DNA from: an uncultured bacterium
Lineage (GTDB): Bacteria; Vulcanimicrobiota; JAJTBE01; CAYNGH01
Direction: 5' to 3'
Assembly (NCBI GenBank): GCA_964396845.1
Contig: CAYNGH010000003.1
Location: forward strand, 2,992-66,991
DNA length: 64,000 nucleotides
This document shows positions 8,497 to 21,826 of this stretch, piece after piece (position 1 is the stretch's first letter; each line of letters begins with the position of its first letter). The position numbers and the translations under genes were made by a program. Under the pieces are notes generated by a model. It did not search any database, was not told the origin of the DNA, and saw nothing but the letters and a program-made list of their open reading frames with translations.

Positions 8497-8760
8497 CGCC
8501 CTTTCCTGAAATAAACAAAGCGGTCTTCACACCGCTTCAACAACAAACTAATGTCATCAACCCTTCAGCCAGGTCTTCCGGTGGAGTCATCATCACCAAG
8601 ACTCCTGCCCGCCAACAGGGTGAGAAGCGGTCGCTTCTGCTTTTTTGCCCATCTGGGCTTCAATAGTCTTAAACAATATATCAGAACCACAAGCGGTTGT
8701 CAACCACCCCGAAACAAAAAAAACCATAAAATACAGCATGCAGAGAAAAATTAAAAAAAA

Positions 8761-9057
8761 TTAATAATCCGATGTCATAATCCCTGTGGAATTATATTTA
8801 TAACTGCCGTTGCCCTTGCCATTGGAACCGGTATAGTCCACCTTGAGATCCTCGAAATACCTCCGGGTTGAACTGCCCACCAGTATCTTGATTCCATAAC
8901 TCATGTAAAGAATATCATCGTTGTTTACCGAATCGGTAAAATCGATTGCGTAATCAACCTTATTGTCATCTTCCACAATAACCTTAAGGCGGATATATCT
9001 GCTGTTGTCTTTCTTCTGCCTGATGTTTTCTGCAGCCCGTCGGGTAAGGGATACCAT
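8761..9057 (-). CDS. IscA/HesB-fold small protein lacking all three cluster-ligating cysteines
   Basis: From internal ATG (MVSLTRRAAENIRQ...). The pattern S-L-T-x-x-A-A, RLKV, DYAIDF, GIKILV, DLKVDY aligns position-by-position with the E. coli IscA core (ITLSDSAAARV.., LRLGV, MAYVLEF, GVKVVVD, QLDFV), but CSG and CGCG are replaced by DDNK and STGIM. Immediately downstream of the radical-SAM gene on the same strand. Confidence 0.4.
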   Translation of the reverse strand: MVSLTRRAAENIRQKKDNSRYIRLKVIVEDDNKVDYAIDFTDSVNNDDILYMSYGIKILVGSSTRRYFEDLKVDYTGSNGKGNGSYKYNSTGIMTSDY

Positions 9058-9138
9058 AAAGATTATCACATCCTTCCAGAGCAATCTCAACAAATAAACA
9101 ACATGGTGAACACTTCCAGTTTTTTTATTTCCCTTGGA

Positions 9139-10227
9139 TTATGGTTTTCTCTTCTCGGAATTTTTTTTACCCAATAAAACCCTCAACTGAATACCGGCCA
9201 TCTCAAAAAATGCTGAAACATCAGTGAAAATTTGCGCCGTATCTACCCAGCAGGGACGAAAACAATCCCGGCAGTTTTCCCGGATCACTGCAACACCGGC
9301 ATCTTTACAGTGGCTTCTGAACTTCTCTACAAAATCATCATCGGCAACAAACCCCTCCACCCCGGCCCAACCCCGGTGACGATGGCAAATGGAAAAACCC
9401 CCGTCAGGCCCTACAGAAAAATACAACCCTCCCGCAAGGCATTTCCATTCAACCCTCTTCCCTGACAGAAGCTCCCCCGCCTTCTTTAAATATACACTGG
9501 AATTGAACAACGGCGCACCCCGGGACTTTTTTTCCCTAAGTCCCCAAAAAATCTCCTCCACCCGGCCTTTCTGCTCATCAGACAAATGATATGAAGTCAG
9601 GCTCTTGCTGTCAACAAGACAGGCCCCCCCCATATTCTGCGCCTCCAGGGGAATCAAAGACAAATAAAAGCCCACACTTCCGGCATAATCGAGAATATCA
9701 TCCAGCTCATCAAGGTTATGCCGGGACACCACAGTGTTAATCAAACCCAAACCTCCGACCCTCTTCAACCGGGATGAAAGGTGAGATATGGAAGACTTTA
9801 CCTTCTCAAGAACACCCTTTGTCCCGGCAACCTCATCCAGCCGGCGGGAATCAAGGCTGTCCAGAGATACGGAAAACCCCCTGCAACCCGCATCAATCAC
9901 CCGGTCCAGAAGTCCATGATCCTCAATAACCCCGTTGGTGAGAACCCTCACCGACATCCCCCGCCGGGCAAAAGACTCCACCGCCTGGGCCAGATCATCC
10001 CGCACCAGAGGCTCACCGCCACCCACAGAAACCGCCTGCACACCCAACCGCCTCAGGTTTTCCGCCATTCTGTCAATCTGGGCCAGGGTCATGTCACCGG
10101 CAGAATCCCCAGTCTTCCAAATACCGCACATACCACACCGCAAATTACAGCGATGGGTTATTCCAAAATGAACATAAACGGGACAATCCCCGGTTATTAA
10201 TGCCCTGCCGATTACAAAGGGATTCAT
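9139..10227 (-). CDS. radical SAM enzyme with Cys-rich C-terminal SPASM/twitch-like auxiliary-cluster region
   Basis: 362 aa. CNLRCGMC (CxxxCxxC) at residues 27-34, GGGEPL glycine-rich SAM motif. C-terminal cysteines C-x18-C (CLAGGLYFSVGPDGGFSIC) and C-x2-C-x3-C (CRDCFRPC) are consistent with a partial SPASM or twitch domain. Confidence 0.8.
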   Translation of the reverse strand: MNPFVIGRALITGDCPVYVHFGITHRCNLRCGMCGIWKTGDSAGDMTLAQIDRMAENLRRLGVQAVSVGGGEPLVRDDLAQAVESFARRGMSVRVLTNGVIEDHGLLDRVIDAGCRGFSVSLDSLDSRRLDEVAGTKGVLEKVKSSISHLSSRLKRVGGLGLINTVVSRHNLDELDDILDYAGSVGFYLSLIPLEAQNMGGACLVDSKSLTSYHLSDEQKGRVEEIFWGLREKKSRGAPLFNSSVYLKKAGELLSGKRVEWKCLAGGLYFSVGPDGGFSICHRHRGWAGVEGFVADDDFVEKFRSHCKDAGVAVIRENCRDCFRPCWVDTAQIFTDVSAFFEMAGIQLRVLLGKKNSEKRKP

Positions 10228-10322: not shown

Positions 10323-11051
10323 ATGAACCTGCAACCGGTCCAGCGGATTAAAAACCGCATCAGCACCATCGAAAGCCGAATTCGAAGCCTCTCCGGAGGT
10401 AACTTTGCCGGGGATTCATTTGGCAGTTCCCTGAAAACAGTCAGCGCAAATTCAACATCCCGCCCGGCACTATCTATTCCCACCGCCACAACCACCAAAA
10501 CAACAACAGAAACATCCCCTTCACCCAAGCCCGATAACACCGCCACACCAACACTGAAAACCCGGCACAGCCAAACTCCCATTGAACAAAACCCGGACCT
10601 GCACAAATGGAAAGTCCTGGCCACAGTCATGGAAAGCAGTGAGATTGACGAATCCATCAAAGCCGCCACCATGACAGCCCTGAAATCCCAGAGAACAACA
10701 CCGCCCACAGATCCCCTCAAGGAAACCCTGAAAACAAACCCGGAAAAAATCGTCGAATTTGACGGATTCACCATGCAAGCCCAAACCGCCGTCAAATTCC
10801 GACAACTCAAAACCCTCATAAATAAAAGATTCCCCAACCGGGAAATCCACGTGACATCCACCATGGGAGGAAGACATATCTCACCGGCACACCCCCAGGG
10901 CAGAGCCATCGACTTTGTGGTGGATCACCTCACTATACCCGAATCGATAGAAGTTGAAAAAATGGCCACAAAATGTGGATTCCACGCCTTCAATGAGTAT
11001 ATCCACGATAGCCCCTATAAAACAGGACCACATATGCACGTGGAGTTGTGA
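10323..11051 (+). CDS. peptidase M15 (VanY/L-Ala-D-Glu peptidase-like) domain protein with conserved N-terminal helix motif and Thr/Pro-rich linker
   Basis: C-terminal SPAHPQGRAIDFVVD (H-x-x-G-x-A-x-D) and EYIHD...HMHVE (E-x-x-H, HxH) match M15 zinc-peptidase motifs. Middle region is low-complexity T/P/S-rich. Track ORF begins at TTG 10254; ATG 10323 (MNLQPVQRIKNRISTIESRIRSL) is my preferred start. Confidence 0.5.
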   Translation: MNLQPVQRIKNRISTIESRIRSLSGGNFAGDSFGSSLKTVSANSTSRPALSIPTATTTKTTTETSPSPKPDNTATPTLKTRHSQTPIEQNPDLHKWKVLATVMESSEIDESIKAATMTALKSQRTTPPTDPLKETLKTNPEKIVEFDGFTMQAQTAVKFRQLKTLINKRFPNREIHVTSTMGGRHISPAHPQGRAIDFVVDHLTIPESIEVEKMATKCGFHAFNEYIHDSPYKTGPHMHVEL

Positions 11052-21187: not shown

Positions 21188-21826
21188 TTATCCTTTTAAA
21201 CGCCTGGCACCGCAAAATTTCTCGGCATAATAGCCCTGATCCATACGGTCAACAACCACTGGCTTTGCCGCGGTGGGACGATGGACAAATTTTCCGTCGC
21301 CAAGATAAATCCCCACGTGGGTATAGTCGGTAGGCAGGTAGGTGTATCCAAAATATACAATGTCGCCGGGCTTTAAATCTTTCTTTTCTACTTTTTTACC
21401 CTGCTTCTGAAGCTCCCAGCAGTTGACCTCGTGCTTGAAATCGGGAGGAGCGATGCCGGAGTCCTTCACCATCTGGCTTACAAAGTCGGCGCAACGCTCC
21501 CGCTGGCCTGGCTTGAATTCCTTGCCGTCCATCTTGGCTGCATAATCCGCCAGCCTCTGTCCCGCCTGGGATGCGGTAATCCCGCCGATGCCCAGGGCAG
21601 CACTTCCACCGGCCCTGGAAAGAAGGGCCTGAAGACTGTCGGGTGTATTCAGGCCGTTGACCCCCATAGCACCAAGGTTGTTCTGGTTTCCCATGGCCAT
21701 CTTCAGGCTGGAATTGAACTGCATGTGGTTAACCTGAAGGGCCTGGGGCGAGGATACCTGGTTAATTCTCTGCTTGATGGAATTAATCCGGCTCATTACC
21801 CTCTGGATTGCATGAAACTGGGACAT
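21188..21826 (-). CDS. NlpC/P60-family peptidoglycan hydrolase with conserved N-terminal helix motif
   Basis: C-terminal catalytic triad context CADFVSQM ... GDIVYF ... HVGIYLGDGKFVH. N-terminus MSQFHAIQRVMSRINSIKQRINQV. Strong RBS GGGAGGAAG. Confidence 0.7.
   Translation of the reverse strand: MSQFHAIQRVMSRINSIKQRINQVSSPQALQVNHMQFNSSLKMAMGNQNNLGAMGVNGLNTPDSLQALLSRAGGSAALGIGGITASQAGQRLADYAAKMDGKEFKPGQRERCADFVSQMVKDSGIAPPDFKHEVNCWELQKQGKKVEKKDLKPGDIVYFGYTYLPTDYTHVGIYLGDGKFVHRPTAAKPVVVDRMDQGYYAEKFCGARRLKG

Follow-up and report, generated by a model that had tools for sequence, protein, structure and literature searches.

What does a protein with the fold of an iron-sulfur (Fe-S) carrier do once it has lost every residue with which such carriers hold a cluster? 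The question is raised by two genes in a stretch of 64,000 nucleotides (nt) from an uncultured bacterium (contig CAYNGH010000003.1 of assembly GCA_964396845.1; "the window" below denotes this whole stretch), where the gene for a radical S-adenosylmethionine (SAM) enzyme is followed on the same strand by a gene for a small, cysteine-free protein with an IscA/HesB fold. A preliminary description of the locus left open whether the small protein serves as a scaffold or chaperone or is itself the substrate of the enzyme. Our analysis leads us to prefer, tentatively and at somewhat less than even confidence, an accessory role in which the small protein binds no cluster and serves the enzyme as a docking or adaptor subunit.

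The small protein exceeded the Pfam cutoff for the Fe-S_biosyn family (PF01521; 32.5 bits against 26.3), and its AlphaFold model, with a predicted local distance difference test (pLDDT) value of 83, matched E. coli IscA and SufA at template modelling (TM) scores of 0.72–0.78 in Foldseek (IscA, 0.78; E-value, 2e−7). Judged by this model, the protein has the A-type carrier fold, as had been claimed from the sequence. The earlier choice of an internal ATG as its start is also right, because every homologue begins with MVSLTR. The replacement of the conserved cysteines noted beforehand proved to be complete: the small protein contains no cysteine, and none is conserved within its family. In the HMMER alignment, Cys35 of IscA stood opposite the second Asp of the sequence EDDNK, and the small protein ended where the CGCG tail would start. 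Therefore, although the fold is shared with IscA, SufA, and ErpA, all three ligating cysteines of the A-type carriers (in the Cys35-type loop and the C-terminal CXC) are missing. The NCBIfam cutoffs for IscA (30 bits against 150) and ErpA (27.5 against 117) were not reached, and the architecture of NfuA, in which an A-type domain is joined to a C-terminal Nfu domain, is not that of this single-domain protein.

Relatives of the small protein were few and uniform in size: a single-sequence search returned 14 and a profile search 21 clusters, all of 94–109 amino acids (aa). On the family's own profile, members scored at least 116 bits, after which the scores fell straight to 45 bits for ordinary carriers; no canonical carrier scored above 59 bits. 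An exhaustive search with a hidden Markov model (HMM) against 1.84 billion representatives at 50% identity returned the family as one cluster (146 bits), with the next match at only 59 bits. Therefore, the family is rare and sharply set apart from the canonical carriers. Its near-invariant residues (T41, V44, D47, D48, I49, Y51, S53, Y54, G55, I56, K57, I58, V60, T64, R65, F68, E69, G77, N79, and G80) lie in a core that spans strands 48–53 and 56–61, helix 62–68, and strand 71–76 of the model, and when the alignment was placed on the model, they occupied both faces of two strands plus the helix. In contrast, residues 29–40, which form the loop that would hold Cys35, and the C-terminal tail were variable. 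Because the old cluster loop and the tail vary while the core is near-invariant, we infer that conservation has moved from the former cluster site to another surface of the modelled fold, presumably one for interaction.

The pair itself recurred on at least 12 contigs of uncultured bacteria; the pairing is therefore far beyond chance, and the small open reading frame (ORF) is a conserved gene. Among the compared loci (designated by L numbers), the small gene was immediately preceded by a same-strand radical-SAM gene of the same clade in L001–L003, L004, L005, L006, L007, L087, L091, L092, and L093, and contigs that matched between the hit lists of the enzyme and the small protein imply more pairs. 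When 87 loci were scanned with HMMs, the small gene was found only beside enzymes scoring >500 bits on the family model, with the one exception of L008. The metagenome-assembled genome (MAG) of that locus (GCA_021287065.1) has the enzyme gene at L008 and the small gene on another contig (L090), indicating that both genes are kept even when unlinked. In six same-contig pairs, the mean identity was 56% for each protein and their divergence was correlated (r = 0.75); the equal means rule out stronger conservation of the small protein than of the enzyme. No third conserved gene was found around the pair across the compared loci. All carriers are uncultured, the relatives being MAGs labelled Vulcanimicrobiota/Eremiobacterota and 'Bacillota'. 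On L090 (2992–4920), another radical-SAM gene, encoding a full SPASM protein of 415 aa, lies convergent to the small gene at a distance of approximately 0.4 kb, the two being separated by a VanZ-like gene; this neighbour may be a replacement partner or a coincidence. On L087, an ENA long-read contig, the small gene (2256–2640) and the divergently transcribed gene next to the pair (297–1060) are each frameshifted, the MVS start of the former and its remainder being in different frames and the latter being split in two; these frameshifts are probably assembly indel errors rather than marks of pseudogenes.

In five contexts (the window, L087, L001, L006, and L092), the pair was followed by infC-rpmI-rplT, which raises the possibility that the two genes are adjacent only through synteny inherited in one lineage, with no functional link. 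Initiation factor 3 (IF3) was 60–71% identical among the infC-linked loci, compared with approximately 50% to an E. coli IF3 sequence, which suggests that these lineages form one deep clade; the adjacency of infC can thus be explained as inherited synteny. As an account of the pair, however, mere synteny is extremely unlikely, given that the pair was intact without infC next to it in L004, L005, L007, and L091, that the small family was found solely in genomes with this enzyme clade, and that the two proteins diverge in a correlated manner. Furthermore, the 264-nt gap before infC contains a strong sigma-70-like promoter (11 of 12 consensus positions plus an extended TG) and an element that matched the L20_leader model of Rfam (RF00558) over its full length at 38.4 bits (E-value, 3e−6), below the gathering score of 58.7. 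Because infC has its own promoter and attenuator, the enzyme gene and the small gene make up a two-gene unit apart from it, in agreement with the preliminary description. A role of the pair in translation, considered on account of the infC adjacency, is unlikely for the same reasons.

The leader-like element is missed by a default Rfam scan, which applies the gathering score. It was conserved in L087, L001, L006, and L092, where both hairpins showed compensatory changes, and may represent an L20 leader variant that is specific to this lineage and occurs outside Firmicutes. The spacers between the two genes at other loci measured 64–228 nt, were unconserved, and contained no conserved hidden ORF. 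A hidden precursor peptide was also considered and rejected: the 67-aa antisense ORFs of L003 and the window are unrelated, and what is conserved in this region is the non-coding L20-type leader. The positions of all features are collected in Table 1.

Table 1. Positions in the window of the two genes, their notable parts, and the flanking features
Feature	Position	Strand	Basis or remark
Small IscA/HesB-fold protein, 98 aa, cysteine-free	8761..9057	(-)	PF01521, AlphaFold, Foldseek
Residues 41-80 of the small protein (near-invariant core), proposed docking surface	8818..8937	(-)	Family alignment
Radical-SAM enzyme gene	9139..10227	(-)	ORF of 362 aa; PF04055 match; uncharacterised subfamily
CX3CX2C motif (C27, C31, C34), site of the SAM-cleaving [4Fe-4S] cluster	10126..10149	(-)	Sequence CNLRCGMC
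C-terminal Cys-rich domain of the enzyme, residues 263-327	9247..9441	(-)	Partial SPASM/twitch-like motif; auxiliary Fe-S cluster presumed
Spacer between the genes, 81 nt	9058..9138	(-)	GGAAGGA ribosome-binding-like sequence 13 nt before ATG
Downstream boundary: promoter (8675..8703) and L20-leader-like attenuator (8506..8648), serving infC-rpmI-rplT	8506..8703	(-)	
Divergently transcribed gene of unknown family	10323..11051	(+)	Possible associate of the pair

The upstream gene, previously described as a radical-SAM gene, was confirmed as such: its product scored 85.8 bits against PF04055 (cutoff, 29.5), which places it in the radical SAM superfamily, and the three cysteines of C27-N-L-R-C31-G-M-C34 were at least 90% conserved across 78 relatives. 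The public NCBI gene call for the enzyme (P0001, 317 aa) begins at Met46 and so leaves out the CX3CX2C motif. The homologues establish the 362-aa reading as the right one, and the shorter call is an annotation error that would hide the radical-SAM nature of the protein. Assignment to a well-characterised housekeeping subfamily with a known substrate would have spoken against a new pairing, and no such subfamily was found. The enzyme reached no curated NCBIfam cutoff, with MoaA, PqqE, MftC, AhbD/NirJ, and anSME among the families tested; the best score was with MoaA (83.7 bits against 284), followed by MftC (74.4 against 265), PqqE (73.8 against 381), and AhbD (65.8 against 500), and these matches were confined to the core domain. 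Sequence matches in the PDB ended at approximately residue 195. The AlphaFold model of the enzyme (pLDDT, 94) was closest to the solved structures of PqqE, CteB, BlsE, SkfB, SuiB, and MoaA, and also to viperins, at TM scores of no more than 0.64.

Beyond the core, C263, C281, C319, C322, and C326 were conserved in the 78 relatives, with an invariant H282 after C281 and a Trp (W327) after C326, giving the layout C263-X12-G276-X4-C281(H282) ... C319-X2-C322-X-R324-X-C326(W327). A SPASM domain is defined by CX9–15GX4C, a gap, CX2CX5CX3C, a further gap, and a final C, that is, seven cysteines for two auxiliary clusters, together with a match to PF13186. The first half of this pattern (C-X12-G-X4-C) is present in the enzyme; however, C-X2-C-X3-C then takes the place of C-X2-C-X5-C-X3-C and the final cysteine is absent, leaving five of the seven, and the window protein had no PF13186 match. 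Its relatives scored approximately 15 bits on SPASM, below the cutoff of 21.5, and the profile of the enzyme family aligned with CteB and SuiB along their SPASM regions. In the twitch class, represented by BtrN, MoaA, and SkfB, the SPASM-like domain is shortened and ligates only one auxiliary cluster. The fold search with the enzyme model gave TM scores of 0.63–0.64 for BlsE and SkfB, and the spacing C263-X17-C281 ... C319-X2-C322 resembles that of the four ligands of BtrN. The earlier label of a partial SPASM or twitch domain is fair as a remote resemblance in view of the conserved cysteine pattern, whereas the enzyme falls outside the SPASM family itself; the domain probably holds one auxiliary Fe-S cluster. 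Membership in the HpnH/DUF3463 group was also considered and rejected: the window enzyme had no match to DUF3463 (PF11946), relatives were only sub-threshold (P0034 at 27.4 and P0008 at 15.1 bits against a cutoff of 31.3), and HpnH was not among the 25 best NCBIfam matches.

A cysteine-rich domain beside a carrier-like protein invites the explanation that the auxiliary cluster has a maturation factor of its own in the small protein, which would handle metal through non-cysteine ligands (the invariant Asp47/Asp48, Tyr, and Glu69) or complete a site together with C326, the fifth cysteine, or His282 of the enzyme. The A-type fold would suit such a task, as would the odd number (five) of conserved C-terminal cysteines in the enzyme and the invariant His beside C281. 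However, conservation in the small protein is lowest in the regions with which IscA binds a cluster, and the five cysteines and the His are all retained in the enzyme relatives that lack a small partner. Moreover, DsrR, which has a similar cysteine-free fold, binds neither iron nor an Fe-S cluster, as stated in the title of a report cited elsewhere (Grimm 2010, cited in PMC11406059). We regard a metal-handling role as very unlikely.

The relatives without a partner carry much of the argument for a docking or adaptor subunit. Many relatives of the enzyme, at 33–41% identity and mostly of approximately 390 aa, occurred in MAGs labelled Myxococcota, Omnitrophota, Acidobacteriota, Chloroflexota, and others, and this clade is much larger than the partnered one. 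The HMM scan of their loci found no small gene nearby, and because the small family is so rare, their genomes must lack the gene altogether. The two clades have 59 conserved positions in common, including all cluster ligands, H282, R324, and W327, and only a single position is conserved differently between them. A DegT aminotransferase gene lay within 6 kb in 58 of the 78 partner-less loci, B12-binding radical-SAM genes were found in 17, and one or other of the two gene types in 69; no DegT gene was found at the partnered loci. Radical-SAM enzymes encoded beside DegT-family aminotransferases, such as BtrN with BtrS and DesII with DesI, act on sugar-like small molecules, which offers, by analogy, a lead for the substrate class of this enzyme family.

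The surroundings of these relatives also included uncharacterised gene sets. One operon, widespread in MAGs, comprises genes for a DegT aminotransferase, a radical-SAM enzyme, a second radical-SAM enzyme related to that of the window, an ABC-2 permease, ABC_transp_aux, and DUF4340; it was seen in L096/L097 (4696–12037), DegT-radical-SAM operons being present in 58 of the 78 loci of L009–L086, many of them labelled Myxococcota or proteobacterial. From its gene content, this operon looks like a pathway for a small molecule or an envelope component. In L094 (134–9366; Chloroflexota MAG GCA_023475345.1), a dense cluster with four radical-SAM genes is arranged around the closest partner-less relative of the window enzyme; the order is AMP-ligase, DegT, radical-SAM, radical-SAM, U32 protein, hypothetical gene, B12-binding radical-SAM, the relative, and AMP-ligase. 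One of these radical-SAM genes is thus B12-binding and another has an HMPTM-type zinc ribbon, and a U32-family protein, DegT, and two AMP-binding ligases are encoded alongside. B12-binding radical-SAM genes also lie a few kb from the pair in L001 (2078–3493, minus strand), L005 (4523–6130), and L007 (3952–5595); none is present in the 64-kb window.

Because the larger, partner-less clade shares the 59 conserved positions, the enzyme family would need no small protein as its substrate, and of the two roles originally left open, we favour the accessory partner and give less weight to the substrate. The docking or adaptor role is favoured because the catalytic signature is unchanged in relatives that work without the small protein, because conservation in the small protein has been relocated from the old cluster site in what is a folded, single-domain protein, and because the A-type fold has precedents for acting purely by protein binding. 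Several considerations weigh against it. The partner-less-clade argument takes it that the substrate class is set by the conserved residues that the clades share; these residues could mostly serve SAM and cluster binding, leaving room for a change of substrate. Moreover, the Tyr, Ser, and Lys of the YMSYGIK hairpin are strongly conserved, as would also be expected of a modification site.

These considerations lead to the contrary explanation, that the small protein is the substrate and that the enzyme modifies a hairpin residue (for example, Y51, S53, Y54, or K57) to produce a protein-derived cofactor or a cross-linked protein. The order of the genes, with the enzyme followed by the small protein and no other conserved gene, would be in keeping with this, as would the invariance of the YMSYGIK segment, the retention of both genes even when unlinked, and the presence of the peptide or protein maturases PqqE, CteB, SkfB, SuiB, MftC, and anSME among the nearest structures and profiles of the enzyme. 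However, the usual layout of a maturase and precursor of ribosomally synthesized and post-translationally modified peptides (RiPPs) was not found. The CX3CX2C motif begins at residue 27, which leaves no N-terminal extension for a RiPP recognition element (RRE) or PqqD-like domain, there was no RRE match, and no separate RRE gene was seen. The small protein is a compact folded domain without a leader and core arrangement, its conserved residues lie in the core strands, and thioether chemistry is ruled out for want of a cysteine; neither a protease nor an exporter gene was conserved nearby. Together with the relatives that have the same 59 conserved positions in small-molecule-type operons and no small protein, this makes the substrate explanation unlikely.

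The gene divergent from the pair had been labelled an M15-like peptidase, and this label found no support: searches of Pfam, NCBIfam, PHROGs, and PDB sequences gave no match. Counterparts in the same relative position were found by tblastn in L087 (425–1060, minus strand) and L091 (3974–4696, minus strand) at 41–44% identity, with 85% over one fragment. By eye, its C-terminus has an H-x6-D and an H-x-H pattern, and its N-terminus is weakly similar to the product of window positions 21188..21826 on the minus strand. Other neighbours were related to hydrogenase maturation, at 3 of approximately 10 contexts. In L001 (4284–5378), a true hypE (TIGR02124, 425 bits against 252) has its stop 2 nt before the start of the radical-SAM gene; a HypE fragment lies at L087 1–204, approximately 1 kb upstream of the enzyme gene; and in L008 (7671–8147, minus strand), a HycI-type maturation protease is encoded 0.6 kb from the enzyme gene. 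These neighbours would fit a function of the pair in [NiFe]-hydrogenase maturation. However, neither the 64-kb window nor the flanks of L004, L005, L006, L007, L091, and L092 contained a recognisable hyp or hydrogenase gene, L001 and L087 are related lineages, such that there are approximately two independent occurrences, and the association was picked post hoc among many possible ones. We give this function very little credence. A bolder reading, in which the small protein is worked on by the enzyme, either as a substrate that turns into a protein-derived cofactor or cross-linked product or as a platform on which a ligand or cofactor is built, and is perhaps tied to anaerobic [NiFe]-hydrogenase maturation because of the hypE and hycI neighbours at three loci, is quite unlikely.

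Several known proteins resemble the partners of the preferred docking or adaptor arrangement in part. Unrelated cysteine-free A-type folds appeared among the weak matches of the small-protein search, and such folds are not rare in themselves, being documented in DsrR, the A-type domain of NfuA, and YneR/PdhI. The A-type domain of NfuA is a carrier fold that binds no cluster and works as a protein-targeting module: it directs NfuA to client proteins and is needed for the action of NfuA on the radical-SAM enzyme LipA (PMC8593673). In NfuA of E. coli and Azotobacter, this domain is missing a ligating cysteine and is fused to the cluster-carrying Nfu domain (PMC8593673), whereas the small protein is free-standing, lacks cysteine entirely, and is linked genetically to a single radical-SAM subfamily. 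DsrR of Allochromatium vinosum (PDB 2k4z) is likewise a stand-alone IscA-like protein and matched the small-protein model at a TM score of 0.75; in contrast, its sequence similarity was weak (E-value, 0.097), it belongs to the dsr sulfur-oxidation operon with a regulatory role, and it has no radical-SAM partner. YneR/PdhI of Bacillus subtilis (model 9a4q; TM score, 0.52, a weaker match) is a small protein of related fold that works purely by enzyme binding, blocking the active site of pyruvate dehydrogenase E1 (PMC10090944); however, this target is not a radical-SAM enzyme and is not encoded as a gene pair with it. On the side of the enzyme, PqqE, CteB, SkfB, SuiB, BtrN, BlsE, and MoaA share the N-terminal CX3CX2C core and a C-terminal Cys-rich extension, and the window enzyme differs from them in the incomplete cysteine set described above. 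Searches of the accessible literature found no description of this pairing. Neither protein is covered by a curated family; the pairing appears to be new, although its kind is known, being that of a radical-SAM enzyme with a dedicated accessory protein and of a degenerate A-type binding module.

We therefore propose the following arrangement, in which the enzyme and the small protein would act as a self-contained two-gene module. The partial-SPASM (twitch-like) domain of the enzyme would probably hold one auxiliary Fe-S cluster, and because of this probable cluster, we propose that the enzyme performs SAM-dependent hydrogen abstraction, presumably from a non-protein substrate, in line with the apparent action of its DegT-linked relatives. 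The small protein, having kept the A-type fold and lost every cluster ligand, would use the near-invariant surface of its beta-hairpin and helix to dock on the enzyme, and it may control substrate access or connect the enzyme with further proteins, such as Fe-S donors.

Most members of the large group of radical-SAM enzymes with auxiliary clusters are still unassigned, and the key to their function often lies in a small partner protein of their own. If the proposal is true, an Fe-S carrier fold has been repurposed as the cluster-free binding subunit of a specific radical-SAM enzyme, and the module would be a stand-alone, genetically hard-wired counterpart of the fused role that the A-type domain plays in NfuA. 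The pair is a tractable two-protein system for deciding between partner and substrate, and it opens a way into a wider, uncharacterised enzyme family whose genes are linked to those of DegT aminotransferases and B12 radical-SAM enzymes in many uncultured lineages.

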